This document shows positions 3,937 through 54,222 of a DNA stretch of 64,000 nucleotides, in pieces. The notes below the pieces were generated by a model that was not told where the DNA came from, did not search any database, and saw nothing but the letters and a program-made list of their open reading frames with translations. Both the position numbers and the translations under genes were made by a program. Source of the stretch: an uncultured Candidatus Saccharibacteria bacterium (GTDB taxonomy: Bacteria > Patescibacteriota > Minisyncoccia > Phycocordibacterales > UBA918); the NCBI GenBank assembly GCA_964350645.1, contig CAYGJY010000001.1, forward strand, positions 326,648 to 390,647, read 5' to 3'. Every line of letters starts with the position of its first letter. Positions within the stretch are counted from its first letter, which is position 1.

Positions 3937-3988
3937 CACAGTTAAAATGTTAGACCAACAATGGCTTAAAATATAGCATAGATGCAAT

Positions 3989-4264
3989 TTATTGCGAGAG
4001 AGCCGTCATGACGTTTGCAAAGCACGTGTCTCCTGAACAATCGGAAAAGGGTGTGAACCCATAGAAATAGATTTCTAGAGTGTATCCAAAAACTATTAAT
4101 ACAATACCTGCTAGTGTCAGTACTCGCTCAACTTTGAATGATTTCAACACCTTTTTATCAATACGATGTTCGTGCGCAATTTCGCTGTGAGCAATAATGA
4201 CGCCAGCTGCCAGCAAGATTTTTCCAATAACACTAACTGTTAATCCCCAAAATAATAGAATCAT
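3989..4264 (-). CDS. Small hypothetical membrane protein
   Basis: A 91-aa ORF with two hydrophobic helices, whose stop lies 1 nt before the alaS start region. No recognisable motif. Confidence 0.4.
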   Translation of the reverse strand: MILLFWGLTVSVIGKILLAAGVIIAHSEIAHEHRIDKKVLKSFKVERVLTLAGIVLIVFGYTLEIYFYGFTPFSDCSGDTCFANVMTALSQ

Positions 4265-4282
4265 ATTATGTCAATATTATAG

Positions 4283-6118
4283 TTATTTTTTCTGGTTCAC
4301 CAAGTTCGAAAATGTATAAACGTCGTTTTCAAGTTGTTTAAGACCTGCTTCGAAAGAGCTAATCTTGTTAGTTTGAATTCCAATAGCTTTGAAGATATTA
4401 GCAACTGTGTCTGATTTCCCGGCACACAAGAAGGAATCTATTTGTTCGATATAATTTGGATCTTGGTAGTACTTCTCTGCCATAACATTGCTCATCAAAA
4501 TCCCAAAGGTGTAGGTGTAGACATAAAAACCATACCGAATATGTGACCAATACACATAACTATACCCGTCTTCCGGGCTTACTGTTACTCCCTCACCAAC
4601 ATAGGCTTTAAGGTGTTTTTGCATGAGATCACGCATTTCGATTCGCGTTAGACTACCTTCGGTCCGGATTCGGTTATGTAATTCGAGTTCATAATTGAAG
4701 CAGGCAATCTGACGCTGAATTGTTGCAATATTTTGAGCCACACGTTCATGTAGTAACACAATTTTTTGACTGGCATTTGCCTGTTCATAGAATTTTTTAA
4801 ATACGAAGTTTTCGAATAATGTACTAGCTGTTTCAGCGGTTGTGATTGAGTGGCCTTGATACAAAGGTGACTGAGTCTTACTGCGTTCACCATGGATTGC
4901 ATGACCCATCTCGTGCGCGAGGGTCTGTAATGAGCGGATATCATTAGTGTGGTTGAGAAAGACTTTAGTTGGCAAGTTCACAGAGTCAGACATGAAAGCA
5001 CCACCACGTTTCCCTTTACGGGGATACACATCAATCTGACCATTAACAAGCATGTTGTCAAAAATCTGACCGTATTCGGTCTTGAGACCATAAAACACAT
5101 CACGACAAATGTCGACAGCTTGGTCAAAAGTAATTACTGGAGTTTCCCCAATAGAATCGTACTTTTGCGAGTAGTCGAGAGTTGGTACGCCATGAAAAGT
5201 CGCTTTTGCTTTATAGAACTTTCGACTGAGTGCAAAACCTTTTGTACTTACAGCTGCTACGAGTGCTTCAATGCTTTTTTGGTCATCTTCGTAGGAAAGA
5301 ACGGTCTCACTGTATGGTAATGAGAAATGACGTAATTCATCTTCAGTTTTCTTGGTGGTAATAACCGCGTTGAGCTCGTGTTCTGCTACCTCGCTGATTT
5401 GCTCTAGTTCAGATAAAACTAATCGCCAGAAAGTAGGCTTTTCTTTTGAAGGTAAGCTGTTGAGTCGTTCTAGAGCTTCATTGATTGGGATTGATTCTTT
5501 TTTGTAGACGATACTTCGATTACTAATAATTTTCTCAGTGGCAGCAACCCACATGCCACTGGCTGGACCTGCTGTCAGATTGAGAATCCGTTCTTCTGCT
5601 TCAGATAGGTTGTGTTTAGCTTCCAGAAAGACTCTAGACAGATAGTAATGAAAGGGTTGTAAAGTAGTGTCGTTCAATAATTTTTTCTGGTCAGCCTTTG
5701 AAATTTTGCCCAGTTCAAGTTCAAAAAACAATAGTTCGTTGCCAGCCTTTGTGAGGCGTTCTGAAATCAAAGCTAGCTGCTTCTCGGCAACGTCGTCGTT
5801 GGCGTTGACCGCATGACGGAATCCAAAATACCTCCCTGGTTTACTAGTCTCAGGCATTGCTGCAAGCCTAGTAAGATCAACAAGAGCTTTGGTTAGTGTT
5901 TTGGTTGAGGTAGCGAAATCACTTCCACGGTAGCGTTTGGCAAAGTGTTTGTAAGCAGTAATGGTTTTCTTTAGATCAGCTTCGATTTGTGGGTCTTTGT
6001 CATTTTTGTAATATAAGGCTTTAAAATCCCATTCCGTTTTGATCTTACCAAGTTTTGGTAAGGTTGATGTCGGTTCGTACTTAAAAGGCTTCCCGGTCTT
6101 CTTTGGTTTTTTTGACAT
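4283..6118 (-). CDS. pepF: Oligoendopeptidase F, M3B family metallopeptidase
   Basis: A 611-aa protein with the zinc-binding HEMGHAIHGE (HEXXH) motif in M3-family context and an overall PepF-like length and layout. Confidence 0.8.
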   Translation of the reverse strand: MSKKPKKTGKPFKYEPTSTLPKLGKIKTEWDFKALYYKNDKDPQIEADLKKTITAYKHFAKRYRGSDFATSTKTLTKALVDLTRLAAMPETSKPGRYFGFRHAVNANDDVAEKQLALISERLTKAGNELLFFELELGKISKADQKKLLNDTTLQPFHYYLSRVFLEAKHNLSEAEERILNLTAGPASGMWVAATEKIISNRSIVYKKESIPINEALERLNSLPSKEKPTFWRLVLSELEQISEVAEHELNAVITTKKTEDELRHFSLPYSETVLSYEDDQKSIEALVAAVSTKGFALSRKFYKAKATFHGVPTLDYSQKYDSIGETPVITFDQAVDICRDVFYGLKTEYGQIFDNMLVNGQIDVYPRKGKRGGAFMSDSVNLPTKVFLNHTNDIRSLQTLAHEMGHAIHGERSKTQSPLYQGHSITTAETASTLFENFVFKKFYEQANASQKIVLLHERVAQNIATIQRQIACFNYELELHNRIRTEGSLTRIEMRDLMQKHLKAYVGEGVTVSPEDGYSYVYWSHIRYGFYVYTYTFGILMSNVMAEKYYQDPNYIEQIDSFLCAGKSDTVANIFKAIGIQTNKISSFEAGLKQLENDVYTFSNLVNQKK

Positions 6119-6683
6119 CTAAAATAAAGTTTTTATATTCGGTATAAACATGGTTGAACTCATGAATAATATCATTTTTAAGGCGTGAGTTGAGGACATT
6201 ACTGATGTCTTGATACATCAGGAGACGATCATCAAGGGTTCCTTTAAATTCCTGCATAAAGCGTGAATGGTCATCGAAGTATTCCTCCACGATCGTACGC
6301 ATATTATGGATTTTATCAGCAGCAGAAATTATAAGAGCCGGATCTGAGGCTTTTTTAAGTTTCTTGGCATAGTGTTTTTTTTGTTCTAACCACGAATGTT
6401 TTTTAGTGTCGGTATCTTGCGGTTCTGACAAATCAACAATGATATCGCGCACGTCGCCACCAAAATCTTCGACGAGTTCATCCTCAGTATAATCAGTGTC
6501 TTCTAGTGTGTCATGAAGCAGGGACGCTATTAGTGTGTCCTCGTCGTCAGAGTAATCGCGGACAATCATCATAACGGCCATCAGATGGGTAATGTATGGC
6601 AATGGCACCGAACCTTTACGAAGCTGATTCTTGTGCAAAATTGCCGCAGCACGAATGGCTTGTTCGATTCGGTAGGTGTACAT
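6081..6683 (-). CDS. Stand-alone RelA/SpoT-type HD domain hydrolase (small alarmone hydrolase-like)
   Basis: IEQAIRAAAILHKNQLRKGSVPLPYITHLMAVMMIV...LLHDTLEDT matches the SpoT/RelA HD hydrolase domain motifs, and there is no synthetase domain. 200 aa. Confidence 0.7.
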   Translation of the reverse strand: MYTYRIEQAIRAAAILHKNQLRKGSVPLPYITHLMAVMMIVRDYSDDEDTLIASLLHDTLEDTDYTEDELVEDFGGDVRDIIVDLSEPQDTDTKKHSWLEQKKHYAKKLKKASDPALIISAADKIHNMRTIVEEYFDDHSRFMQEFKGTLDDRLLMYQDISNVLNSRLKNDIIHEFNHVYTEYKNFILDVKKTKEDREAF

Positions 6684-43064: not shown

Positions 43065-45686
43065 TTAGAGATGTTTCTTGAGGTATTTGCCAGTATGAGA
43101 TTTTTGATTTTCAGCCACTTCTTCGGGAGTACCCTTAGCTACCAATTGCCCGCCGCCAGCCCCACCTTCGGGTCCAACATCGAGAATGTAATCAGAACAT
43201 TTGATCAAATCTAGGTTGTGTTCGATGACCATCACGGTATTACCACGATTGACTAACTCTTGAAGAATCTCAATCAGCTTTCTGACGTCTTCGTAGTGCA
43301 ACCCAATAGTTGGCTCATCAAGAAGATAGATGGTTTTTTGCGTGTGTGGTCGATAGAGTTCTGAAGCAATTTTAACGCGTTGCGCCTCTCCACCAGATAA
43401 CGTAGTAGCACTTTGCCCCAGCTCTAAATATCCTAGTCCAACATTTTGTAAACTGTAAAGACGTTCATAAATCGCCGGTACATCTTTGAAAAATTCTACG
43501 GACTCTTCAATATTCATATGAAGGACATCATAAATATTCTTCCCTTTGTAGTAGATCTCGAGTGTTTCTTTAGTAAAGCGTTTACCGTCACACACGTCAC
43601 AGGTTACAAATACTGTCGGTAAAAAGTGCATCTCGACTGCAATCACCCCATTACCCTGACACGCTTCACAGCGACCACCTTTGACGTTGAATGAGAAACG
43701 GCCTGGTTTCCAGCCACGCGCTCGAGCTTCACTGGTTGCGGCAAACATATCACGAATATGGGTAAAAGCACCGGTGTATGTAGCAGGATTCGAGCGTGGT
43801 GTACGTCCAATCGGCGACTGATCAATCAGCACAGAACGGCCCAGATACTCAGTACCAGTGATAGATGACACATTATAGGTTTTGGCTGTTCGGTATTTTT
43901 TTTCCAGTCTTGCTTGGAGATTTTTATGCAGAATCTCGTACATGAACGTAGACTTACCTGAACCTGATACACCAGTCACTGTAATCAAACGACCAAGCGG
44001 AATATCCACATTCAGATTCTTAATGTTGAAAGCCTTGCCACCTTTGATTTTGATTGCTCCTTTTTCACCAGTGCGTCGTTCTGGAATCGGAATAGTTTTG
44101 TCTCCCCGCAAGTAATCAAGTGTAATAGATTTTGAAGGGTTTGTTTTTGCCTCTAGGAGCTTCGGGAGATAGTCTGCTACGACTACTTCCCCACCATGAA
44201 CACCAGCACCAGGACCAATATCAATAATATAATCAGCGGCATAAATAGTATCTTCGTCGTGCTCAACCACAATAATTGTATTCCCCAGATCGCGTAGTTC
44301 AGTAAGTGTCTGAATCAGTTTGTCGTTGTCTCGTTGGTGGAGCCCGATAGTGGGTTCGTCAAGTACGTAGAGCGCGCCAACCAAACCAGAACCCAGCTGT
44401 GAGGCGAGTCGAATCCGCTGCGCTTCCCCACCCGAAAGTGTATTAGCTCTACGGTCGAGGGTTAAATATTCAATCCCAACATTATTCATAAATTGAAGAC
44501 GTTCGATAATTTCACGAAGGGCTGGCCAAGCAATATCTTGCTGCTTTTTAGTCAGTTTCAGACTATCAATAAAATCACTGGCCTCTCGGACGGTCATACT
44601 GGTGAAATCAACTATATTTTTACCAAGATCTTTACTGGTGCCTCCCAAGTACACTCGCAGCGCTTCTGGGCGCAACCTAGCTCCTTTACATGATGGACAT
44701 TCATCGGAATTAAAAATTCCTACGACCCCAAGACCGTTACATTCAGGACACGCACCATATGGTGAGTTAAATGAAAAAAGACGCGGTTCTACTTCTGGGA
44801 AAGATGACCCATCGACTGGACAGATAAACTTTGCTGAAAGGGTGCGTTCTGTGCCGTCAGGTGATTCTACCTTTACAAGGCCATTTGATTGTTGCAGTGC
44901 CAATTCTACTGCCTCAGAGAGTCGTTCCCTGGATCCTTTTGGATCGTCGGTGAATTCACTTACATAGATCGCATCAACTAAGACATCAATATCGTGTCGC
45001 TTTGTTTTGGTGAGTTCTATTTTGTCACGTAATTGGTGAATTTTGCCGTCAATCTTAACAGTCTCATACCCTTTACCAAGTAAATCATATAACAATTGAT
45101 AGTACTCCCCTTTACGTCCCACAATGACTGGCGAAAAAATTCCAACCCGTCCTTTATTCAACTGAATTCCCATCACTTTTTCCGCATCTTTTTTTGCAGT
45201 TTTTACTTCTTTGTCTTCAATTGATTTCAGAACAATACCTAGAATTTCGTCTTGAGAAAGTTTTTCAATCGGCACATCAGTATCAAGACAATAGGGCTGA
45301 CCTACCCGCGCATACAAAATACGGAGGTAGTCATAAATTTCTGTAATAGTTGCCACGGTTGAACGCGGGTTCCGACTGGCAGACTTTTGGTCAATCGAAA
45401 TAGCTGGTGAGAGCCCTGAGATCTCATCAACATCAGGCTTCTGCATTTTATTTAAAAACTGACGCGCGTATGGAGACAATGACTCAACATACCGACGTTG
45501 ACCTTCGGCGAAGATCGTATCAAAAGCTAGTGATGACTTACCTGAACCAGATGGCCCTGTAATAGCAATCATCTTACCGCGCGGCATTTCAACATCAATA
45601 TTTTTAAGATTGTGCGTACGGGCACCACGAACCACGATCTTGGCATCATGTTCATTCCATTCTGTTTTTGTTTTTTTCTGTGCCAT
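43065..45686 (-). CDS. uvrA: Excinuclease ABC subunit A
   Basis: Two ABC ATPase modules (GPSGSGKSSLAFDTI and GVSGSGKSTFMYEIL), zinc-finger Cys clusters (CPVDGSSF...CPECNGLG, CEACQGNG...CDVCDGKR) and two LSGGEAQR signature motifs. 873 aa. Confidence 0.95.
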   Translation of the reverse strand: MAQKKTKTEWNEHDAKIVVRGARTHNLKNIDVEMPRGKMIAITGPSGSGKSSLAFDTIFAEGQRRYVESLSPYARQFLNKMQKPDVDEISGLSPAISIDQKSASRNPRSTVATITEIYDYLRILYARVGQPYCLDTDVPIEKLSQDEILGIVLKSIEDKEVKTAKKDAEKVMGIQLNKGRVGIFSPVIVGRKGEYYQLLYDLLGKGYETVKIDGKIHQLRDKIELTKTKRHDIDVLVDAIYVSEFTDDPKGSRERLSEAVELALQQSNGLVKVESPDGTERTLSAKFICPVDGSSFPEVEPRLFSFNSPYGACPECNGLGVVGIFNSDECPSCKGARLRPEALRVYLGGTSKDLGKNIVDFTSMTVREASDFIDSLKLTKKQQDIAWPALREIIERLQFMNNVGIEYLTLDRRANTLSGGEAQRIRLASQLGSGLVGALYVLDEPTIGLHQRDNDKLIQTLTELRDLGNTIIVVEHDEDTIYAADYIIDIGPGAGVHGGEVVVADYLPKLLEAKTNPSKSITLDYLRGDKTIPIPERRTGEKGAIKIKGGKAFNIKNLNVDIPLGRLITVTGVSGSGKSTFMYEILHKNLQARLEKKYRTAKTYNVSSITGTEYLGRSVLIDQSPIGRTPRSNPATYTGAFTHIRDMFAATSEARARGWKPGRFSFNVKGGRCEACQGNGVIAVEMHFLPTVFVTCDVCDGKRFTKETLEIYYKGKNIYDVLHMNIEESVEFFKDVPAIYERLYSLQNVGLGYLELGQSATTLSGGEAQRVKIASELYRPHTQKTIYLLDEPTIGLHYEDVRKLIEILQELVNRGNTVMVIEHNLDLIKCSDYILDVGPEGGAGGGQLVAKGTPEEVAENQKSHTGKYLKKHL

Positions 45687-45744
45687 AGCAAGCCGTCTTC
45701 GGGTGGAGCCGAAGACATGAAACGTTAGTATAACAAATACTCAC

Positions 45745-47088
45745 CTACTTAGAAACGGTTGGCAAGGGCAAGGTAATAACTACATGCGTACCAACATTTT
45801 TAATAGATTCAATGGCAATAGTTCCCCCCATCAACTCAAGAAATTGACGAGTAATCCACATACCTAGTCCAGTGCCGGTAATAGCCGAAACATCAGTTGA
45901 ATCTACTCTAAAAAATGGTGCAAATAATTTTTCTCGATCAGCAGCCCCAATCCCCATACCAGTATCCTTGATCCGTATTTCAATGCTTCGAATTTTAGTC
46001 TCTGCTACGATAGTGATTGAGCCAGTCTTTGTGTATTTGATTGCATTACTAATAATATTGATAAGTACTTGATGTAAACGTTTAGGATCAGCCGCCACCA
46101 TCAAACCTGATGGCACTTCTGATATAAGTTCAAGATCTTTCGCTTTCGCCGAACTTTGCAACTCCTCTAATACAGCCAGTGAAACACCTTCCAGATTAGT
46201 TTCTTCAATATCAACCTTGAGTTTCCCAGACTGGATGCGTGCAACGTCGAGTAAATCGTTGACGATAGTGAGAAGACGATTGCCGGCTTCTTCTATCCGT
46301 TTGGCGTACGTCCTATTAGTTTCTGACAAGTCACTCTCTTGGAGCATGCTGGCATATCCCTTCATGGCGGTTAATGGCGCTCGCAACTCGTGTGCGATTA
46401 AATTAGTGAACAAATCTTTGGTTGCAATAGCTTGCTGTGCTTCTTGATAGAGCTGTCGATAGTTAACACTAGAAATATGCCAATAAGCAATTACCAATAC
46501 AAGTGCATACACCAAACCCAATGTGACATAGGCAGTTCGCTCTTGCTCTGCGAAATACTGATCAATCTGGGAAAAGTTATTTTCGGTCAAAATAAAATAC
46601 GTACCACCCTCTGTACTAATTGCTCTCACTGACTGCCAGACCCTAACACCATCTTCCATAAAAGGAAAAATTAGTGACTCATCAAAGCGAACGGCTGCTG
46701 TTTGATACAAGGCTTTATTTGCCTCTTCCTCACCCACTAAAGTAGTATCGAGACCAGCTCGCACTAAAAATGTATTCTGTTGCTGCTCAACAATTCTAAA
46801 CTTAGTGATGTCTGGGTTTAAATCAGCTATCTTTTCTAACTGTGTCTGGGCTATTGCTGTATCAAAATTTGTCGCTTCCAGCAGCACCACGAATGAGTCA
46901 TGCAGTAGACCAATGCGATCCCGTTGTAACTTATCCTGATTGGAGCGCCCTGCTTCCAAAAAAGCATTACTTGTATACAAAAACGCCAGCGGAAGAACGA
47001 TAATCAAAAGCAGCGCAAACTGAATTTGCGGATGCGCTTTAATAAAAGTGAACGAGCGTTGGACAGAAAAAAGTAGACCAGAAATCAT
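45745..47088 (-). CDS. Sensor histidine kinase
   Basis: An N-terminal transmembrane and sensor region, the H-box HELRAPLTAMKGY, and HATPase_c N/G boxes (INIISNAIKYT, DTGMGIG, GTGLGM). Its start overlaps the stop of the upstream 972-aa gene in an ATGA arrangement. Confidence 0.85.
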   Translation of the reverse strand: MISGLLFSVQRSFTFIKAHPQIQFALLLIIVLPLAFLYTSNAFLEAGRSNQDKLQRDRIGLLHDSFVVLLEATNFDTAIAQTQLEKIADLNPDITKFRIVEQQQNTFLVRAGLDTTLVGEEEANKALYQTAAVRFDESLIFPFMEDGVRVWQSVRAISTEGGTYFILTENNFSQIDQYFAEQERTAYVTLGLVYALVLVIAYWHISSVNYRQLYQEAQQAIATKDLFTNLIAHELRAPLTAMKGYASMLQESDLSETNRTYAKRIEEAGNRLLTIVNDLLDVARIQSGKLKVDIEETNLEGVSLAVLEELQSSAKAKDLELISEVPSGLMVAADPKRLHQVLINIISNAIKYTKTGSITIVAETKIRSIEIRIKDTGMGIGAADREKLFAPFFRVDSTDVSAITGTGLGMWITRQFLELMGGTIAIESIKNVGTHVVITLPLPTVSK

Positions 47089-50003
47089 ACTACCTGAGTC
47101 AACTCAGCAACTCTTGTGACAGCAAATTTTTTCTCACGTGTACGTAAGTGTAAGCCGAGTAAAATGAGAATCACCCCGATAGACACTATTGAAAGTGACC
47201 CAACTAGTAACAGAATATTTGGCGATACTAGACTTTGTCGTTCTGTTTGTCCAACAACAGCAAGCTCTGTATCAGCATCGACTGGAGTAAAGGCTTCGGC
47301 AGTCTTAATGAAGCGGGTTGGCTCACTTTTTGCGACTACTCGTCCTGCGTTATCTGTCACACCAACATACACTTCATGCTCCCCATCTTCAATTTCTTTA
47401 TCGAAAGTATATGACCAATTGCCATCTTTGTCTGTTTTTATTGTAACGACAACAGGATTGGAATACACAAATAAGGTTACAAAACTATTTGGCAAACCAC
47501 GTCCAGAAATGACAGCGGTTGGTAGCGGCTTTGTATCGGGTGCATTGTCTCCTTTTTCTGACTTAACAGAAGTGATGGCAGTAATCTCAAATACATCAGG
47601 CCTAAGGGCACCGGTTGTCTTCGGTGATTCGTAAGCGACTACCACTTCTGACTCAGCACTCGTTGGATCGTAGCCGTTTAAAATTTCAATACCATCAATG
47701 AAACCGTCATTGTCTGAGTCAGCCATGAGTGGGTCAGTTTGATAAATATTTCTTTCGTCATAATCAGTTACTCCATCATTGTCAGTATCAACAAGAGCCT
47801 CATCACCAACTCGTTCTCTCACGATTCGCTCAGTTTGCTCGGTACGTAGTGTCATTTCTGCTAATTGTCGGCGGAGACGGTTTTCAATTAAAGAAACTAG
47901 TTGATCGGTATCAGCTTCAGAAAGAGCTGACCTGACGATATCTGTCTCCAAGAGATTAAGCTGCTCCTGAATTTCTCCAATAGCGGTACTATCTTTACCC
48001 CGAATAGCAATCGCTAAACGCTTGAAGCTTTCATCGAGTCTTGCTTGGTAGCGAGCTAACAGAGCTGTCAATTGCTGATCCGCTTTCTCTGAGTCTGTTT
48101 CTGAAGCTTCAATAGCTTCTGGAACATCAGCTCTTGTGATTATTTCAGATTTCGTAATCGCTTCATCAACAAAACGCTGTCTTGATGCTGGAGCAGTCAG
48201 TATCTGAGGACGTGATTCAATTTCACCGGATGTGGTACTGGCATTCTTTAGGCGATTCAACTCAGCTGAAATTTGATTGTCACTCTCAAATGTTTTAGTT
48301 GATGCTTCTGTCACTGGTGATACCGCTTCTTTTTTTGTCTCAGTGGAAACAAGAGGCTTTTCTACTTCAGGATTAGCAATTCTAACCAATGCATCTTGAC
48401 CAAAATATGAGACATTTTCAAGCCACGTGCGTGTAAAGATTGTGTAGTTTCCATTCGGTAAATTATTTGTATCAACAGCAATCCGCCATGTCTGCCCTTC
48501 AGCTCGATTTGCAACTCCAACGTATGAAGCGGATAAGGTATTTTCCCGTCGCATATACACTTCGATTTTTTGTAATTCTCGGTTTGTCTGAATCACAAAT
48601 GGAGCTATCCCAGAGAGACGCTCTCCGTTAACTGGTTTGATACTAACCGACAGGGGCAGTTTAATTTGAGTATTTTCAGCAGTAGCAGTCTCTGCATTCA
48701 CTGATATTGGTTGCTCGTTAAATTCTTCAACTTTTGTAGCACCTACATCCTGCTGTGACTCATTAATCAAAAATGAACGCTTTTTAGTTTGATAAGAAAC
48801 ATCATTAACCACTGTATCTGCAAACAGATAATACTGTCCAGGAGCTAGATCAGTCGTCTTGTATGTAAGTGAAAAGTTTGTCGGCGAAATTTTTTCGCCG
48901 GCTCCAAGGCTCGTGATATCGCCACGATCATTTGCAATACTAAAGGTAACTCGGCTAGTTGCGGAGGATGATTTGGCTCGTAGTTGCACTGAATTTTCTT
49001 GTCGCTCAAAATCAAGTGTTAAATTGAACTCTTCAGTCTGATCCGTTACTGCTGTAGCATCCGTTTCTGAAGCTTCAGACTCAGTAGCCTCAGATTCGTT
49101 CTCTGTCTCGGTAACAGTGGTCGCATCAATCAGACTTGTGTTTGTAGTTGTATCTGGCTGTTCAACTGGTTCCTCATTTTTTATAAGGTTATCTGTTACG
49201 GGTACTGCAACCTGGTTCTTTATTTCATACTTGTCAGATGTTTTGGCAAATGAAGTCTCCTCTGTAATTACAATTGCCTCAACCTTATAAAAACCATTCT
49301 CGTATTTAGCTGTATCCCAAACAAATTCCCAAACTCCATCAGATACCCGCTTTGCTGTTCCTAAAGTGAAACGTTGAGAAGCATCAATTCGGTGGGCTAC
49401 TACATCAACTCGTTTTGCAGTCGCTACCTTAATATGGACTTTCACAGACTTTTTAAAGTAACCAGCTTGGTCAAAATCAAAACTAACTTCAGGTTTTGGT
49501 ATCACCCCAGTATTAGCCTGCTCACCTTCTAGCAGCTGCTGCTCTGTATTACTAGTTAGAGACAAAGCCGCTGCATACTGCTTTCCAGGCACCAAATCGA
49601 GTGCCGAAGCATGAAAATAAGTTAGGAGAGCACCTAATATAACCACCCCTATACCACCATAACGTGCCAAACCAATAGCCAAGGTATCAATATCAACTGG
49701 CATTTTTGGTAGTACAAACAACGACAAAGCAACCGTGCGCGGCAAAGCATAGCTGTCTTTTTTTTCTTTTGGTGAGTTGAAAAGCGTTTCTTTTTTCTTT
49801 GGCTTGAGTAACTTAGACTGCGGTACTGATTTTGTAGCTTTGGTGCTAGTTTTTTTTGGAGTAGTTTTTTTGACAGTGGCTTTTTTTGTCACTTTCTTAG
49901 GCGTTTTCCTAGTAACCGCTTTCTTAGCGGCAGGTTTTTTTGGAGCAGTTTTTTTCTTACTAGAAATTACCGCTTTTTTGGCGGTTCGCTTTGTTGTACC
50001 CAT
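47085..50003 (-). CDS. Large membrane protein with lysine-rich (histone H1-like) N-terminal tail, extracellular Ig-like/beta-rich region and thrombospondin type-3-like Ca-binding repeats
   Basis: The first 70 aa or so consist of KKxxPKK-type repeats (KKTAPKKPAAKKAVTRKTPKKVTKKATVKKTTPKKTSTK). A transmembrane helix follows at about residues 100-125, then roughly 800 aa rich in T/S/E, including DTDNDGVTDYDE and DSDNDGFIDGIE motifs. A C-terminal transmembrane helix (LLLVGSLSIVSIGVILILLGL) closes the protein. The gene is co-operonic with the response regulator and kinase. Confidence 0.55.
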   Translation of the reverse strand: MGTTKRTAKKAVISSKKKTAPKKPAAKKAVTRKTPKKVTKKATVKKTTPKKTSTKATKSVPQSKLLKPKKKETLFNSPKEKKDSYALPRTVALSLFVLPKMPVDIDTLAIGLARYGGIGVVILGALLTYFHASALDLVPGKQYAAALSLTSNTEQQLLEGEQANTGVIPKPEVSFDFDQAGYFKKSVKVHIKVATAKRVDVVAHRIDASQRFTLGTAKRVSDGVWEFVWDTAKYENGFYKVEAIVITEETSFAKTSDKYEIKNQVAVPVTDNLIKNEEPVEQPDTTTNTSLIDATTVTETENESEATESEASETDATAVTDQTEEFNLTLDFERQENSVQLRAKSSSATSRVTFSIANDRGDITSLGAGEKISPTNFSLTYKTTDLAPGQYYLFADTVVNDVSYQTKKRSFLINESQQDVGATKVEEFNEQPISVNAETATAENTQIKLPLSVSIKPVNGERLSGIAPFVIQTNRELQKIEVYMRRENTLSASYVGVANRAEGQTWRIAVDTNNLPNGNYTIFTRTWLENVSYFGQDALVRIANPEVEKPLVSTETKKEAVSPVTEASTKTFESDNQISAELNRLKNASTTSGEIESRPQILTAPASRQRFVDEAITKSEIITRADVPEAIEASETDSEKADQQLTALLARYQARLDESFKRLAIAIRGKDSTAIGEIQEQLNLLETDIVRSALSEADTDQLVSLIENRLRRQLAEMTLRTEQTERIVRERVGDEALVDTDNDGVTDYDERNIYQTDPLMADSDNDGFIDGIEILNGYDPTSAESEVVVAYESPKTTGALRPDVFEITAITSVKSEKGDNAPDTKPLPTAVISGRGLPNSFVTLFVYSNPVVVTIKTDKDGNWSYTFDKEIEDGEHEVYVGVTDNAGRVVAKSEPTRFIKTAEAFTPVDADTELAVVGQTERQSLVSPNILLLVGSLSIVSIGVILILLGLHLRTREKKFAVTRVAELTQVV

Positions 50004-50062
50004 TTGTCTTTATTATAAAGTAAAAAGCCACTACAAATTAAACACCTGTCGATAACTATTTG

Positions 50063-50425
50063 TTAAAGATGACTACTGACTAATGCGTTCAATTCAGTTG
50101 GATTGGTAGTTGCCTTAAAATAATAGTCAGTTGCACCAGCCGTGATCACAGCAGTTTTTAATTCCGGTGTGTCGTTATTTGAGAAAATAATTATTGGTAC
50201 TGTTTTATACTCTTCGTTAGCACGAACTGCCTTAAGAATTTCAAGTCCTGATGTACCTGGCAAGTCTAGGTCAAGTAAAATCAAATCTGGGACTTCAGTA
50301 AGTATGTGATCATAGGCCAAGTTTCCATCAGCACACACTGTAACTTTGTGGCCGGCATCGCTCAAATGTTTAGATACAAAATCTTGCATGAACTGATCAT
50401 CCTCGATCAATGTAATTGTTTTCAT
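50063..50425 (-). CDS. Single-domain response regulator (CheY-like receiver)
   Basis: A 120-aa protein with acidic-pocket and phospho-acceptor context ...DLILLDLDLPGTSGLEILK and a conserved Lys near the C-terminus. No output domain. Confidence 0.8.
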   Translation of the reverse strand: MKTITLIEDDQFMQDFVSKHLSDAGHKVTVCADGNLAYDHILTEVPDLILLDLDLPGTSGLEILKAVRANEEYKTVPIIIFSNNDTPELKTAVITAGATDYYFKATTNPTELNALVSSHL

Positions 50426-50444
50426 ATACCACTATCGTAGCACG

Positions 50445-52478
50445 CTACTTTTTCTTCTTGGTGAGACTATCCTCAAGCACTTTAATCTCATCACGAATGA
50501 TAGCTGCCGTTTCAAAATCAAGGATTGCCACCGCTTCTTCCATTTGGCGCCGCTTTTCTTTCATGACTTTCTTCGGGTTTTTCTTGAAGAGTTCCATGTC
50601 CACCTTTAGCAAGGTGTCGACTGTTTCATCGTGCACAGTGCGCATTTGATCAGCAATAGATTTAATCTCTTTCTTAATCGACATCGGGGTGATGCCGTGC
50701 TCTTTGTTATAGGCAATTTGTTTATCACGACGTCGCTGTGTCTCACCAACCGCATACTCAAGCGCTGGTGTCATTTCGTCGGCATAGAGTACTACTCGCC
50801 CATTCACGTTTCGAGCCGCTCGACCGATAGTTTGAATGAGGGCTGTTTCGCTGCGCAAAAAGCCAGACTTGTCAGCGTCAAGAATAGCCACCAATTCGAC
50901 TTCGGGTAAGTCGAGACCTTCCCGCAGGAGGTTAACCCCCACCAAACAATCGAACACTCCGCGGCGGAAGTCATTGAGGATTTCGATCCGCTCAATCGTA
51001 TCGACGTCACTGTGGATATACTTGGTCTTCATTCCCTTCTCTTCTAGGAATTCCGCTAAGTCTTCTGCCATACGCTTAGTGAGCGTGGTTGTAAGGACAC
51101 GAGCACCGCCTTTGATAATCTTCTCGGCTTCGGCAATAAAATCTTTGATTTGTCCTGGGTAAGCACCTTTTTCAGTTACTGGGCGCAGATCAATCTCCGG
51201 ATCAACCAAGCCAGTGGGGCGAATGATCTGCTCCACCATCTGACCACCACTTTCTTCGAGCATTGCAAATTCATACTTGCCGGGAGTTGCCGTTGTGTAA
51301 ATTCTTTGACCGAGACGCTCATCTATCTCATCGTATTTGAGTGGGCGGTTGTCAACCGCACTTGGCAGGCGAAAGCCAAACTCCACCAAGTTGTCTTTCC
51401 GAGAACGGTCACCAGCGTACATGCCGTTCATTTGCGGCACCGTGACGTGTGATTCGTCGATAATGGTCAAGAAGTCTGGGGTGCCATCATCTTTGTGTGG
51501 GAAATATGAAAGTAAGGTGTACGGTGCTTCTCCCGGCTTGCGGCGGTCAAAGTGGCGTGAATAGTTCTCAATCCCGTTACAATAACCAACCTCCCGCATC
51601 AATGCGAGGTCATGTTGCGTCCGGCGCTTAATGCGTTCTGCTTCAAGTAACTTCCCTTCTTTTTTAAATTTTACTAATTGCTCTTTGAGTTCAACCTCAA
51701 TATCAGCAATGGCTAACTTTCGCTCCGCTTCTGGCGTCACAAAGTGCTTGGCTGGGAACAAGAAAAATACGTCTGGTTCAGAGATAATCTCGCGCGTCAC
51801 TTCGTCGATTTTTGTAATCCGACTAATCTCATTGCCGGTAAAACTCAGACGATAGATCACTCGTTCGTTGGTCGGCATGAGTTCAATCATATTACCGACG
51901 GCGCGGAAGCTCGCTGGTGTCAGGTCAGCGGTGGTTCGTTCGAATTGCATATCAATCAACGTCCGCAGCATCTCTGTTCGAGTTGACTCATAGCCAATCC
52001 CGATCTTCATCAGCTTAGCTTCATACTGCTCAGGTGAACCAAGACCATAAATGCACGACACCGACGCCACGATGATAACGTCCTCGCGAGTCAGTAGCGC
52101 CTGGGTTGAGGCGTGACGCAGTCGATCAATCTCTTCGTTTATCTGGGCCTCTTTTTCGATGTACGTATCAGACGTCGACATATAGGCCTCTGGCTGGTAG
52201 TAGTCGTAGTAGGAGACGAAGTAATGCACGGCATTGTTCGGGAAAAAGTCCCGGTACTCTTGCGCGAGCTGCGCGGCCAAAGTCTTATTATGAGCAATCA
52301 CCAACGTCGGCTTCTGGATCTGCTGAATCACGTTGGCGGCCGTAAAGGTCTTCCCTGAGCCGGTCACACCCAAAAGCGTCTGGTGTTTTTGACCAGCCTT
52401 AATTCCCTTCACCAACGCCTCAATCGCCTTCGGCTGATCTCCAGCTGGTGTTTTTTCTGTAGATATCTCAAATTTCAT
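50445..52478 (-). CDS. uvrB: Excinuclease ABC subunit B
   Basis: The helicase motif I LLGVTGSGKTFT, a DExH-type motif II (IIDESH), a C-terminal UvrB/UvrC interaction domain (AAIIRDEIKVLE) and the beta-hairpin region. 677 aa. Confidence 0.95.
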   Translation of the reverse strand: MKFEISTEKTPAGDQPKAIEALVKGIKAGQKHQTLLGVTGSGKTFTAANVIQQIQKPTLVIAHNKTLAAQLAQEYRDFFPNNAVHYFVSYYDYYQPEAYMSTSDTYIEKEAQINEEIDRLRHASTQALLTREDVIIVASVSCIYGLGSPEQYEAKLMKIGIGYESTRTEMLRTLIDMQFERTTADLTPASFRAVGNMIELMPTNERVIYRLSFTGNEISRITKIDEVTREIISEPDVFFLFPAKHFVTPEAERKLAIADIEVELKEQLVKFKKEGKLLEAERIKRRTQHDLALMREVGYCNGIENYSRHFDRRKPGEAPYTLLSYFPHKDDGTPDFLTIIDESHVTVPQMNGMYAGDRSRKDNLVEFGFRLPSAVDNRPLKYDEIDERLGQRIYTTATPGKYEFAMLEESGGQMVEQIIRPTGLVDPEIDLRPVTEKGAYPGQIKDFIAEAEKIIKGGARVLTTTLTKRMAEDLAEFLEEKGMKTKYIHSDVDTIERIEILNDFRRGVFDCLVGVNLLREGLDLPEVELVAILDADKSGFLRSETALIQTIGRAARNVNGRVVLYADEMTPALEYAVGETQRRRDKQIAYNKEHGITPMSIKKEIKSIADQMRTVHDETVDTLLKVDMELFKKNPKKVMKEKRRQMEEAVAILDFETAAIIRDEIKVLEDSLTKKKK

Positions 52479-53016
52479 GAATCAAGTCTGATTGTAACAA
52501 ATATTCCCAGTCTTTATCCCAATATCCAGTGGTGTAATTTTTAATGTTAGCCTGAAATTCAAAACTTTTATCTAAAAATTTCCATAATTCATCCTCCACA
52601 AAAGTTGACAACATGTTTACTATTTCATTTACACTTTTATTATCGATGTGAATTTCTGAATTCCTTAGAGTAGTATTATGGATAAAACCTTTGCTTATCA
52701 ACTTATCCAACTCTTTACCAAAATATATTTTTTGAATTGTCTTAAATTGCTCTAATATTTGAACTTTTTGTGTTTTATCAATTTTATTAGCTTCAAATAG
52801 TAGATTAATTGCTTCACTAATACATACATCGTCGTTGTATTTCTTATCTGAGATTACATTCCTTAAAGATACTAAAATAGCAAGATTTAAGTTCTCAACT
52901 AGTAAATGAGCAACTCCTTCAAGTCTCTTATTATCAAAATATGACTTAAATCCAATCATCCGGCATAAGTGCTGAAGCTCGCCAATAGAATTATCTAAAT
53001 ATTTTTCTAATTGCAT
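52468..53016 (-). CDS. Hypothetical protein in AT-rich insert (possible HEPN-like Rx4H motif)
   Basis: A 182-aa ORF whose DNA is conspicuously AT-rich by eye, very roughly 30% GC against roughly 45-50% in the flanks (not computed). It contains TLRNSEIHID, which fits an R-[ND]-x3-H HEPN-type motif. Its stop overlaps the uvrB start by 11 nt. Confidence 0.4.
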   Translation of the reverse strand: MQLEKYLDNSIGELQHLCRMIGFKSYFDNKRLEGVAHLLVENLNLAILVSLRNVISDKKYNDDVCISEAINLLFEANKIDKTQKVQILEQFKTIQKIYFGKELDKLISKGFIHNTTLRNSEIHIDNKSVNEIVNMLSTFVEDELWKFLDKSFEFQANIKNYTTGYWDKDWEYLLQSDLIHEI

Positions 53017-53019
53017 GGA

Positions 53020-54222
53020 TTAACTACTTAGGATTTGTTCTCGTAGTTTCTTCGTGAAATTAACAATGTAGTACAGATTATGAAGACTCGCGAGTTGTGG
53101 GCCGAGCATTTCTTGGGAACGGAATAGGTGCGCTAAATACGCTTTGGTGTAGTTCTGACAAACGTAGCAGTCGCAGGATTCGTCAGGCTTGCTGAAGTCG
53201 CGGATATATTTTTGGTTTAAAAGATTAGTCCGCTGATGTCCGGCGTTAGTTGTCTCATAAATCGTCCCGGTGCGACCAATCCGGGTCGGAGCGACACAGT
53301 CAAAGGTATCGCAACCAAGCGCTACGCCTTCGCGAATATCACCGGGCTCACCGATGCCGAGTAAGTGTCGTGGTTTGTCCTCGGGGAGAATTTCGTTCAC
53401 CACTCGAATCGCTTCACCTAAGTCCTCTTTACTAAAACTCCCCCCAATGCCAAAACCATCAAAGTCCATGTCGGACAACACCCGGGCACTCTCAGCCCGC
53501 AAGTCGAGATGCCGACCCCCTTGCACCACGCCGTATAGCCCCTGCTTCTTGAGAGCGTCGTAGTTGCGCTTATGCGCCAAAATACTGCGCTTCGCCCAGC
53601 GGTGGGTACGATCCATGGCCTCTTTTTGGTATTCATAATCAGCCGTTGGACTGGTGCATTCATCAAAGGCAATGATGATATCAGCACCGATATTGTGCTG
53701 AATATCAATGGAGCGTTCTGCCGTGAAGCGGTGCATTGAGCCATCGAGGTGTGAAGTAAAGGTCACTCCTTCTTCATCAATAATACAGAGTTTTCCGTGT
53801 TCACTGGCGATGTCTTTGTTGTAGACATTGAGACTCGAGCGTTCAGTCGTCTCACTCGCCTCCCCTTTTGCAAACTTACTTACCCCTTTACCAAACGCCG
53901 CCCCCAGACTAAAGACTTGAAAGCCACCACTATCGGTCATGGTTGGCATATTCCAGTTAGCGAATTTATGCAGTCCACCGGCGTCTTTCACGACATCATC
54001 GCCCGGCTGGAGAAAAAGATGGTAGGTATTGGCGAGCGCCACTTGGTTGCCGACATACTGCTTCATGTCTTCGGGTGAGACGCCTTTCACTGTTCCCTTA
54101 GTGCCAACCACAACAAACGCCGGTGTTTCGATATCGCCATGAGGCGTATGAATAACACCAGCCCGGCCGAGAGTGCCGGGCTGCTTTTTAATCACCTCAA
54201 ATGTGACTGGTCGATCTGCCAT
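53020..54222 (-). CDS. tgt: Queuine/preQ1 tRNA-ribosyltransferase
   Basis: The N-terminus FEVIKKQPGTLGRAGVIHTPHGDIETPAFVVVGTKGTVKGV, a catalytic Asp region, and the zinc site CDCYVCQNYTKAYLAHL (CxCxxC...H). 400 aa. Confidence 0.9.
   Translation of the reverse strand: MADRPVTFEVIKKQPGTLGRAGVIHTPHGDIETPAFVVVGTKGTVKGVSPEDMKQYVGNQVALANTYHLFLQPGDDVVKDAGGLHKFANWNMPTMTDSGGFQVFSLGAAFGKGVSKFAKGEASETTERSSLNVYNKDIASEHGKLCIIDEEGVTFTSHLDGSMHRFTAERSIDIQHNIGADIIIAFDECTSPTADYEYQKEAMDRTHRWAKRSILAHKRNYDALKKQGLYGVVQGGRHLDLRAESARVLSDMDFDGFGIGGSFSKEDLGEAIRVVNEILPEDKPRHLLGIGEPGDIREGVALGCDTFDCVAPTRIGRTGTIYETTNAGHQRTNLLNQKYIRDFSKPDESCDCYVCQNYTKAYLAHLFRSQEMLGPQLASLHNLYYIVNFTKKLREQILSS

Follow-up and report, generated by a model that had tools for sequence, protein, structure and literature searches.

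A polycationic N-terminal tail on a kinase-coupled, receptor-like surface protein family of Patescibacteria

The locus and the kinase-coupled protein

The stretch of DNA analyzed here (the window, 64,000 nucleotides from an uncultured Candidatus Saccharibacteria bacterium) carries an open reading frame with an ATG start (positions 47085-50003, minus strand) that encodes a protein of 972 aa; every other gene and element described below lies on the same strand. A gene for a histidine kinase of 447 aa (45745-47088), with HisKA and HATPase_c domains in Pfam and two predicted transmembrane (TM) helices as judged by eye from the sequence, starts within the 3' end of the larger gene and overlaps it by 4 nt. 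Such a gene lies directly downstream in 72 of 76 loci and overlaps in 49, and translational coupling of the 972-aa protein to a membrane histidine kinase is strongly supported. A large part of bacterial diversity belongs to the Patescibacteria (CPR), whose cells are tiny and have few recognizable regulators and whose surface proteins are mostly without known function. We define here, as X-HK, a previously unnamed family of this group by two features, full-length homology to the 972-aa protein and a histidine kinase gene that follows immediately. The constant kinase partner was missed in a preliminary description of this DNA; the module is conserved across a large CPR lineage.

Upstream of the pair, an open reading frame at 50063-50425 encodes a receiver-only response regulator (Pfam) of 120 aa, which is very acidic, with a net charge of about -10 by residue count of the translation. 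A receiver gene sits beside the module in only some related loci, as a REC-REC protein in one subtype, and the associated regulators are REC-only or REC-REC proteins without a DNA-binding domain. The conserved outer flanks are uvrB upstream (50445-52478; open reading frame and synteny) and uvrA downstream (43065-45686; synteny). The X-HK pair lies between these two genes in 43 of the 44 loci of the tailed subfamily, which could be inherited synteny without functional meaning.

The 972-aa protein has two membrane-spanning segments, which the AlphaFold2 model places at residues 105-134 (pLDDT ~90) and 928-958. The first (TM1; 49602-49691) is a signal-anchor helix recognized by hydropathy, the model and invariant alignment columns (R114, G117 and G124), and its hydrophobicity is moderate (Kyte-Doolittle ~1.6-1.8). 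The second (47130-47222; hydropathy, alignments and AlphaFold2), IGVILILLGLHLRTRE, is highly conserved and is followed by a short cytoplasmic C-terminal tail, residues 959-972, and the stop codon (47085-47129; open reading frame and AlphaFold2). Between the helices lies an ectodomain, residues 135-927 (47223-49601), delineated by Pfam, the AlphaFold2 model and Foldseek. It consists of three Ig-like sandwiches (173-261, 326-414 and 453-542), a helical stalk (555-732), TSP3 Ca-binding loops (739-780) and a Big_13 Ig domain (806-907). The Pfam matches above the gathering score are Big_13 (43.8 bits, cut-off 27), TSP3_bac (36.8, cut-off 25) and Big_7 (31.9, cut-off 24.1); Foldseek matches the ectodomain to Ig/FN3 arrays of adhesins, S-layer proteins and receptors, and a profile search of PDB sequences gave no match. 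With the Ig-like, TSP3 and Big_13 domains, which are of extracellular type, on the outside, N-in/C-in is the only reasonable topology, and the N-terminus stands at the inner face of the membrane, where the preliminary description had placed it. It is strongly supported that the 972-aa protein is a receptor-like surface protein specific to Patescibacteria and that the tail considered below is its N-terminal arm.

A TATAAT -10 box (50012-50017) ends 8 nt before the ATG, and a box at the same distance is found in a related locus, L001. Across the tailed loci, a -10 box ends 4 to 10 nt (mostly 6 to 8) before the start in 30 of 45 cases, versus 1 of 75 for the coupled kinase. The box was found through comparison of related loci; a scan with the sigma-70 consensus found no promoter at the locus, since there is no -35 box at the standard spacing. 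A -10 box so close to the ATG indicates a leaderless mRNA, and it is strongly supported that the gene of the 972-aa protein heads its own, probably leaderless, X-HK transcript. A conserved cis element, GTTATCGACA (50047-50056), lies ~53 nt upstream of the ATG and 29 to 30 nt upstream of the -10 box. A reading of the upstream motif as a DnaA box (TTATCGACA is one mismatch from TTATNCACA) was rejected; consensus DnaA boxes occur in the window at chance level, none of them near the locus. A search of Rfam around the locus returned only a Glutamine-II match that lies within the kinase gene and below threshold, which we attribute to chance. What emerges is a widespread, unnamed module of three parts (a tailed Ig-domain receptor-like protein, a histidine kinase and, often, a receiver-only protein) with a fixed promoter layout and a fixed slot between uvrB and uvrA.

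The tail in the 972-aa protein and across the family

Residues 1-85 (49749-50003) form a tail of 29 Lys and 2 Arg with a net charge of +28, or 0.33 per residue, and no Asp or Glu occurs before residue 72. Measured against the Lys background of 5.8% in the 33 other open reading frames of the window, 21 Lys in the first 60 residues have a P value of 9e-12 and 29 in residues 1-85 a P value of 2e-15. In a six-frame scan the tail is the strongest basic tract of the whole window and the only one of its kind, scoring +14 in 30 aa, whereas other long open reading frames (at least 150 aa) never exceed +10. The preliminary description had reported a stretch of almost pure Lys/Ala/Pro/Thr repeats over about the first 70 residues (49794-50003), directly before a TM helix, and quoted residues 17-58. 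The lysine-rich tract is real, but it reaches about residue 85 (49749), and its composition is better described as K/T/A/S/V (in the first 60 residues, K 35%, T 22%, A 13%, V 8%, S 7% and P 7%). As for repeats, there is a weak spacing of KK doublets at 4 to 5 residues; a tandem repeat at the DNA level was not found in this region, and the basic runs are short K doublets. Nor does the tail adjoin the helix, as a less charged, conserved juxtamembrane segment of about 20 residues (86-104; 49692-49748), ALPRTVALSLFVLPKMPVD, intervenes, with low charge density near TM1 and a family motif of approximately LALLSPYRFPxD. AlphaFold2 leaves residues 1-100 disordered (pLDDT below 50, with 34 to 44 and no secondary structure in the tail). 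Taken together, composition, statistics, the model and family conservation strongly support that residues 1-85 are translated and form an intrinsically disordered, polycationic tail facing the cytoplasm, and we hold this descriptive account with high confidence.

Homologues of the X-HK family number 1,253 representatives at E <= 1e-30. We scored a protein as tailed when its first TM helix fell at residue 60-160 and the preceding net charge was at least +10; by this measure 123 of 151 representatives of clusters at 50% identity have a polybasic N-terminus of 60 to 140 aa. With 43 genome loci and a homologue, P0002, that is 43% identical to the 972-aa protein, shares its MGTTKR start and has a tail of similar kind, this answers the suggestion that orthologues be surveyed: the tail is present in them. 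The profile scan of genome contigs found nothing with a two-sequence alignment and needed one of 39 sequences, and a short, underpowered profile of the juxtamembrane segment and TM1 (54 columns), meant to reveal this N-terminal module in proteins of other architecture, gave no significant match among 5.8 billion proteins. Literature searches on lysine-rich tails of bacterial membrane proteins, and on Patescibacteria combined with leaderless or Shine-Dalgarno initiation, returned nothing on the X-HK family or on Patescibacteria.

The TM-start motif could be located in 102 representatives; their tails contain 24% Lys, compared with 4.8% elsewhere in the protein, and hardly any aromatic residues (F 0.9%, Y 0.1%, W 0%). 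The tails are also rich in Thr and Ser, and [ST]PxK motifs in the family occur only about 1.5-fold above the composition-based expectation (55 observed versus ~36). The ratio K/(K+R) drops to 0.28 and 0.54 at loci with 62% and 60% GC, where Arg takes the place of Lys and the charge is kept. This replacement indicates that selection acts on charge and not on codons; that it acts on positive charge and not on sequence is strongly supported. Among 469 open reading frames of at least 200 aa in related loci, 36 have a strong basic tract, 32 of them in the X-HK family and the remaining 4 looking like spurious antisense frames; a lineage-wide habit of basic tails is therefore unsupported in this limited sample (the window plus about 820 kb of related loci).

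Net charge along the tails is about +0.3 per residue at 50 to 100 residues from TM1 and only +0.04 to +0.14 per residue within 30 residues of it. The tail-less relatives have an ordinary short signal anchor by which they insert. With its charge far from TM1, the tail is more than a simple topogenic signal. The L011/P0119 lineage has kept the uvrB-X-HK synteny and lost the tail, and a tail-less sister subfamily is also paired with a kinase; the tail is therefore dispensable for the core receptor-kinase function.

Comparison with known tails and accessory proteins

By analogy, Rv3852 of Mycobacterium tuberculosis is the best working model for the tail; homology is not expected. DNA binding by Rv3852 is the work of lysine-rich PAKK repeats at its N-terminus, and a TM helix keeps the protein tethered to the membrane while DNA is bound (PMC4433263, PMC8233713). 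The preliminary description had called a membrane-tethered DNA- or RNA-binding tail unusual, and a tethered H1-like DNA binder is indeed rare, but Rv3852 is a precedent (PMC4433263, PMC8233713). Rv3852 is small, with a C-terminal helix anchor, and restricted to M. tuberculosis and close relatives (PMC8233713), and its repeats are regular PAKK/KKAP tetrapeptides (PMC4433263). What the two proteins share is a lysine-rich cytoplasmic region joined to a TM helix (here a tail at 1-85 and a helix at 105-134), an architectural analogy only. The X-HK tails, in contrast, are 60 to 140 aa long, non-repetitive and K/T/S/V-rich, and the 972-aa protein has a 790-residue Ig-domain ectodomain, a second TM helix and a coupled histidine kinase and belongs to Patescibacteria. 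To our knowledge, no large ectodomain or kinase partner has been described for Rv3852.

The tail is also like the C-terminal domain of H1 and the bacterial H1-like tails, of which AlgP, the HupB C-terminal domain and the phasin PhaF are examples, in being a disordered polycation of about +0.3 per residue that has very few aromatic or acidic residues and a scattering of S/TPKK-type motifs (APKK at 20-23, TPKK at 34-37 and 48-51). The resemblance to H1, AlgP and Hc1 that the preliminary description had drawn is one of charge density only. Linker_histone (H1/H5) gave no match to the whole protein at E <= 0.1 or to residues 1-140 at E <= 10; no Hc1, HU or DksA domain was found in the 972-aa protein, and the AlphaFold2 model has no folded domain in residues 1-100. 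Membership in Hc2 was rejected, as the HC2 family (PF07382) scores the tail below threshold (E = 0.041, 14.4 bits versus a cut-off of 40), a compositional likeness only. A tail of the AlgP, PhaF or HupB type was likewise rejected, the KPAA/PAKKA/AAKK tandem repeats being absent, with one APKK and two TPKK in their stead. Unlike H1, AlgP, HupB, DdbA, Hc1, Hc2 and PhaF, which are soluble, the tail is tethered to the membrane, and it contains much more Thr, Ser and Val and less Ala and Pro. DdbA of Streptomyces is an example of how an H1-like DNA-binding domain may be combined with a different functional module in one protein (PMC3643593).

The 972-aa protein can be set beside the accessory membrane proteins of two-component systems, such as YycH/YycI with WalK and LiaF with LiaS. 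Like these, it is a non-kinase membrane protein with a large extracytoplasmic part that stands beside a histidine kinase in a conserved pair. Unlike them in sequence and fold, it bears a doubly anchored Ig-like/TSP3/Big_13 ectodomain and a polycationic tail for which YycH/YycI and LiaF have no counterpart.

Candidate ligands and roles of the tail

In a very small cell, a membrane-tethered polycation could reach DNA, RNA or ribosomes, anionic phospholipids and polyphosphate alike. Our tentative preference, at somewhat less than an even chance and by analogy with Rv3852, is that the tail is a membrane-tethered nucleic-acid binder without sequence specificity. On this proposal the tail would bind a cytoplasmic polyanion, most likely a nucleic acid, with chromosomal DNA favored, and binding would hold the receptor-kinase complex and the nucleoid together. 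As the module is without a DNA-binding response regulator of its own, the tail could also connect signaling to the chromosome. The nucleoid anchoring and polyanion binding suggested in the preliminary description are thus plausible. We count against nucleic acid the K/T/S/V/A composition, where the H1 C-terminal domain, AlgP and Rv3852 have K/A/P, together with the lack of tandem repeats, the HC2 score below threshold, the small excess of [ST]PxK motifs and the existence of tail-less relatives that keep the kinase. If the tail does bind DNA, the X-HK proteins would be the second case, after Rv3852, of a histone-like arm tethered to the membrane, independent of the first and far more widely distributed, and they would be candidates for connecting surface sensing with the nucleoid in episymbiotic bacteria; if lipids or ribosomes are bound instead, the tail is still a clear case of charge-only selection in a bacterial disordered region.

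A bolder extension, which we regard as a long shot, is that the tail is the chromosome-contacting output arm of this receptor-kinase module, driven by sensing through the ectodomain. The Ig domains would sense something outside, such as host-cell contact, the coupled kinase would pass the signal on, and the tail's hold on the nucleoid at the membrane would change through modification of the tail; alternatively, intramembrane cleavage at the Gly-rich TM1 would free a histone-like fragment. Surface sensing in these ultra-small cells would then couple directly to chromosome organization or to access for the UvrA/UvrB repair proteins, whose genes flank the module.

Compared with nucleic-acid binding, binding of the tail to anionic lipids of the inner leaflet (phosphatidylglycerol or cardiolipin head groups) is a less probable reading, which we consider unlikely but take seriously. 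The head groups are the nearest polyanion, since the tail is tethered to the membrane, and the binding of acidic lipids by polybasic juxtamembrane regions is well known. Such binding might stabilize the N-in orientation of TM1, whose moderate hydrophobicity and invariant Arg and two Gly fit a weakly hydrophobic helix in want of support, or might gather anionic lipids around the receptor-kinase complex or sense them there. Yet the charge density is lowest beside the membrane and highest 50 to 100 residues away, and the tails have hardly any of the aromatic and hydrophobic residues that usually mark lipid-binding polybasic segments. A few charges suffice for topology, the tail-less relatives insert anyway, and a net charge of +14 to +32 over 60 to 140 residues far exceeds what the positive-inside rule needs.

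More improbable still is a regulatory disordered arm, one that docks the receiver protein, the kinase core or some other acidic partner, works as a switch phosphorylated on Ser/Thr or serves as an entropic spacer. Such an arm would suit the genetic setting, in which a kinase and often a strongly acidic receiver-only protein share the operon, and also the abundance of Thr and Ser in the tails and the short cytoplasmic motifs [VI]xIx[DN]NTKK and KLxxVEALHxKK of many family members, though the 972-aa protein is without them. However, many tailed loci have no adjacent receiver gene, and conservation of composition without sequence is unusual for a specific docking site. We also found no support for an electrostatic pairing of tail and kinase: the median net charge of the kinase's cytoplasmic part is -1 in tailed loci and -3 in tail-less loci, so that a tail does not go with a more acidic kinase.

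The tail might instead bind ribosomes or rRNA and keep ribosomes at the membrane, which we judge quite improbable. The model here is the Oxa1, YidC2 and Alb3 tails, which are positively charged and poorly structured and bind the ribosome, a nucleic-acid-rich particle (PMC8733628). Like these tails, which face the cytoplasm or matrix, the X-HK tail is a polybasic extension of an integral membrane protein, and rRNA would offer a plentiful polyanion. Those tails, however, are C-terminal, belong to a five-helix insertase core and carry defined conserved motifs, whereas the tail here is longer and N-terminal on a receptor-like Ig-domain protein that is no insertase and has no YidC-like core; no ribosome-related genes were found among the neighbors either.

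Two further readings would remove the tail from the mature protein or from translation altogether, and both seem highly improbable. In one, residues 1-134 are a very long cleaved signal peptide with the site HASA/L at 132-134; an AXA-like ASA does stand directly after TM1 and is identical in P0002. Across the family the AXA motif is not conserved, which makes such a peptide unlikely; its n-region would be about 100 residues long, and the conservation of TM1 (invariant R, G and G) goes far beyond that of usual signal peptides. In the other, the true start is the in-frame ATG at codon 101, a downstream start being what the preliminary description had named as a possible refutation. The upstream ATG is sound: the conserved -10 box sits there, Met101 is not conserved (it is Leu in P0002), and in a strain variant of the locus, L083, only 2 of 23 codon differences fall in the tail, both synonymous. 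Against either reading, the polybasic composition, not the sequence, of the upstream ~85 to 100 codons is kept in more than 120 distant homologues.

Least credible of all is that the composition is a nucleotide-level feature with the amino acids as a by-product, an A-rich unstructured 5' coding region aiding leaderless initiation or poly(A) runs giving phase variation or ribosome slippage: the gene does appear leaderless and six A7-A8 runs fall in its first 250 nt, of 41 A/T runs of at least 7 in the window, but the basic stretch of 60 to 140 codons extends well past the initiation region and Arg codons replace Lys codons in GC-rich relatives with the charge kept. Phase variation at the A tracts and a codon-level origin of the bias were accordingly set aside; the A-tract lengths are the same in L083, and the reading frame is kept in all homologues.

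The polybasic N terminus of X and its start codon

The gene for X, the 972-aa surface protein, is an ORF with an ATG start at positions 47085 to 50003 of the minus strand. The preliminary description had noted a lysine-rich N-terminal stretch, and the composition bears this out. Residues 1 to 60 comprise 35% Lys, 22% Thr, 13% Ala, 8% Val, 7% Ser, and 7% Pro, the first acidic residue comes no earlier than position 72, and residues 1 to 85 contain 29 Lys and 2 Arg (net charge, +28). Against a background of 5.8% Lys, taken over 33 further ORFs in the window, the probabilities of 21 Lys in 60 residues and 29 in 85 are ~9e-12 and ~2e-15, respectively, and in a six-frame scan of the window the tail is the strongest basic tract of the 64 kb. 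KK doublets weakly tend to recur every 4 to 5 residues; no tandem repeat was found in the tail region at the DNA level. The coordinates originally given to the tail, 49794 to 50003, cover residues 1 to 70, but the basic tract extends to about 49749. Nor does the tail lie immediately before the membrane helix, as had been stated: a conserved juxtamembrane segment of ~20 residues intervenes.

An AlphaFold2 model built from a 39-sequence alignment (mean pLDDT, 69) leaves residues 1 to 100 without secondary structure (pLDDT, <50). There follow a confident first transmembrane helix, TM1 (residues 105 to 134), three Ig-like sandwiches (173 to 261, 326 to 414, and 453 to 542), a helical stalk (555 to 732), TSP3 loops (739 to 780), a Big_13 sandwich (806 to 907), and a second helix, TM2 (928 to 958). 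Pfam matches Big_7 at residues 184 to 243, TSP3_bac at 739 to 761, and Big_13 at 832 to 893. A Foldseek search of the PDB retrieved tandem Ig/FN3 arrays, which come from giant adhesins, S-layer proteins, and cell-surface receptors; no relative of X was found among PDB sequences, and public sources label family members only as "hypothetical protein" or "Ig-like domain-containing protein." Because extracellular-type domains lie between the two membrane helices and basic residues follow TM2, an N-in/C-in topology is indicated. The tail would therefore be cytoplasmic, and the placement originally proposed holds on the strength of the positive-inside rule and the domain types. Arg114, Gly117, and Gly124 of TM1 are invariant and TM2 is also highly conserved, which suggests helix-helix contacts, plausibly with the histidine kinase (HK) coupled to X.

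Several observations bear on whether the true start could lie downstream of the lysine-rich stretch. A TATAAT −10 box (50012 to 50017, minus strand) ends 8 nt 5′ of the X ATG, and an orthologue with 43% identity (L001) shares its position relative to the start. In loci from species-representative genomes, 30 of 45 tailed X genes have a TATAAT/TATACT box that ends 4 to 10 nt (mostly 6 to 8 nt) ahead of the start, compared with 24/44 for uvrB, 5/40 for uvrA, and 1/75 for the translationally coupled HK gene. A −10 box this near the start codon is the signature of a leaderless mRNA whose 5′-terminal AUG is the start; Shine-Dalgarno motifs are scarce in the X-related loci. Met101, the sole downstream ATG ahead of the membrane helix, is Leu in the orthologue. 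In L083, a strain variant with 99% protein identity, 23 codons of the X gene differ; within the tail there are two differences, both synonymous third-position changes, and the A7-A8 runs all keep their lengths. Together with the family-wide polybasic character, these features uphold the upstream ATG and argue that the tail is translated. Leaderless-type promoters are common for first operon genes in this lineage (starts of uvrB and X in L001 to L060; window positions 50004 to 50017, minus strand).

Conservation of the tail and its gene neighborhood

A word-indexed search returned only three relatives of X, and an exhaustive profile search returned 1253 cluster representatives at an E value of ≤1e-30. 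We surveyed the tail in the best 150 of these plus the representative P0003. A Met start, a first hydrophobic helix at residues 60 to 160, and a net charge of at least +10 ahead of it occur together in 123 of these 151 proteins, which answers the concern that orthologues might lack the tail. In the 102 representatives with a locatable TM-start motif, the tails have a median length of 85 residues and a median net charge of +20, contain 24% Lys (4.8% in the remaining protein) and few aromatics (Phe, 0.9%; Tyr, 0.1%; Trp, 0%), and begin with a loose consensus, M-A-T-T-K-K-V-A. Charge per residue is about +0.3 at 50 to 100 residues upstream of TM1 and +0.04 to +0.14 in the last 30, a profile unlike a simple positive-inside signal. 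Arg replaces Lys in GC-rich relatives (K/(K+R), 0.28 at 62% GC and 0.54 at 60% GC) and the charge is maintained, which argues that selection acts on the positive charge of the protein and not on A-rich DNA. Of 469 ORFs with a length of ≥200 aa in related loci, only members of the X family have tracts of comparable basicity, bar four apparently spurious antisense ORFs. Many tails (P0019, P0027, P0036, P0040, and others) carry, within the N-terminal 60 to 120 residues, the short conserved motifs [VI]xIx[DN]NTKK and then KLxxVEALHxKK, which could be docking sites within the disordered region; X of the window has neither.

When the family alignment was used to scan genomes, 80 loci were returned, nearly all in MAGs labeled Patescibacteria/CPR (Paceibacteria/Parcubacteria, Kaiser-, Nomura-, Lloyd-, and Moranbacteria), many with automatic labels such as "Saccharibacteria." Labels of Acidimicrobiales, Bdellovibrionales, or Saccharibacteria on module-bearing MAGs (L008, L063, L067, L069, L071, L077, and many "Saccharibacteria" loci) are probably binning or labeling errors. 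The HK gene lies directly 3′ of X in 72 of the 76 loci with enough downstream sequence and overlaps it in 49 of the 72, chiefly by the 4-bp ATGA type. The gene order of the tailed subfamily is uvrB-(receiver)-X-HK-uvrA: 43 tailed loci have uvr neighbors, and one is on a short contig without flanks. Tail-less relatives are shorter, with ordinary short signal anchors, and 24 of them lack uvr neighbors. The one that has them, L011 (X protein P0119, positions 3866 to 6649 of that locus), retains uvrB-X-HK and the ARxxG helix, but its X protein has only ~10 residues ahead of that helix and seems to have lost the tail naturally. This loss, and the pairing of the tail-less sister subfamily with kinases, show that the tail contributes an added function and is dispensable for the receptor-kinase pair. 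The uvr-flanked order (window positions 43065 to 52478, minus strand) is kept across Paceibacteria-type genomes even at X identities of 28 to 36%; nesting of a signaling module between excision-repair genes may have either functional meaning or reflect inherited synteny.

Candidate ligands of the tail

These data strongly support a translated, disordered, cytoplasmic, membrane-tethered polycation that is conserved for charge on a receptor-like kinase partner. Such a tail would bind a polyanion electrostatically. We tentatively favor a nucleic acid, most likely the chromosome, because the tail resembles H1-like DNA-binding tails in charge density, length, and lack of aromatic and acidic residues. 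The charge also sits ~30 to 50 residues out on a leash and not at the bilayer, which favors nucleic acid over anionic lipids, a possible but less probable ligand for a polycation tethered to the membrane. A nucleic acid ligand further has direct experimental precedent in Rv3852, a nucleoid-associated protein (NAP) of Mycobacterium tuberculosis, whose Lys-rich PAKK repeats are high-affinity DNA binders (PMC4433263). The transmembrane helix of Rv3852 holds the DNA-bound protein at the membrane, resulting in a diffuse nucleoid, and without the helix it becomes a condensing NAP (PMC8233713). Rv3852 appears to be the closest functional analogue of the X tail, although size, architecture, composition, kinase coupling, and taxon all distinguish the two. 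Histone-like arms tethered to the membrane are thus already known in kind; what is new here is such an arm as a conserved N-terminal part of a CPR-wide receptor-kinase module. The description of the tail as histone H1-like stands for its probable action as a polycation and fails for family membership: Pfam finds no linker-histone, Hc1, or HU domain in X, the HC2 match to the tail reaches 14.4 bits, below the cut-off of 40, and the tail has no KPAA/PAKK tandem repeats.

A tail on a kinase-coupled receptor could also serve a protein partner as a regulatory or docking arm, but charge complementarity with the kinase was tested and was negative, and we consider this role unlikely. Ribosome binding in the manner of Oxa1/YidC/Alb3 tails (PMC8733628), another use for a membrane-tethered polycation, is more doubtful still. 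That the composition is a nucleotide-level by-product, that the tail is a long signal peptide that is cleaved, or that the start is wrong is in each case very improbable.

Other features of the locus

At 50047 to 50056 (minus strand), ~53 nt 5′ of the X start, lies a non-palindromic element, (T)AGTTATCGACA(G), that is conserved (related loci L001 to L048). It coincides with the stop codon of the upstream gene, be it receiver or uvrB, at a near-constant intergenic distance of 52 to 54 nt, and is 29 to 30 nt upstream of the −10 box, too distant for a standard −35. The window contains one exact copy of the 10-mer, and in 824 kb of related loci, 24 to 25 of 33 matches are upstream of an X gene. 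The element, which differs from the DnaA-box consensus by one mismatch, is probably where a dedicated regulator binds.

Regulators near X either consist of a receiver alone, as the one in the window does, or are REC-REC, and the adjacent receiver gene is missing in many loci. A DNA-binding output domain was absent from all four associated regulators scanned with Pfam (window, L020, L028, and L042). A second tailed subtype (L031, L036, L037, L040 to L047, L052, L060, and L075) has a juxtamembrane motif of another type, LPxNMSxRxxEKSxVL, and is preceded by a ~270-aa receiver protein with two REC domains instead of one; in some of these loci X lies 3 to 33 nt from the two-REC gene and the upstream element is missing.

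A Glutamine-II riboswitch candidate inside the kinase coding region (47014 to 47057, minus strand) scored 21.9 bits in Rfam against a gathering score of 33 and was set aside as a chance match. The window's tgt-uvrB spacer (52480 to 53033, minus strand) is not homologous to that of L083, the 99%-identical strain, although both flanks align. It measures ~550 nt in the window, with a 182-aa ORF (52468 to 53016, minus strand) that has no significant Pfam match, and ~290 nt with a 40-aa ORF in L083, and is a small strain-variable cassette.
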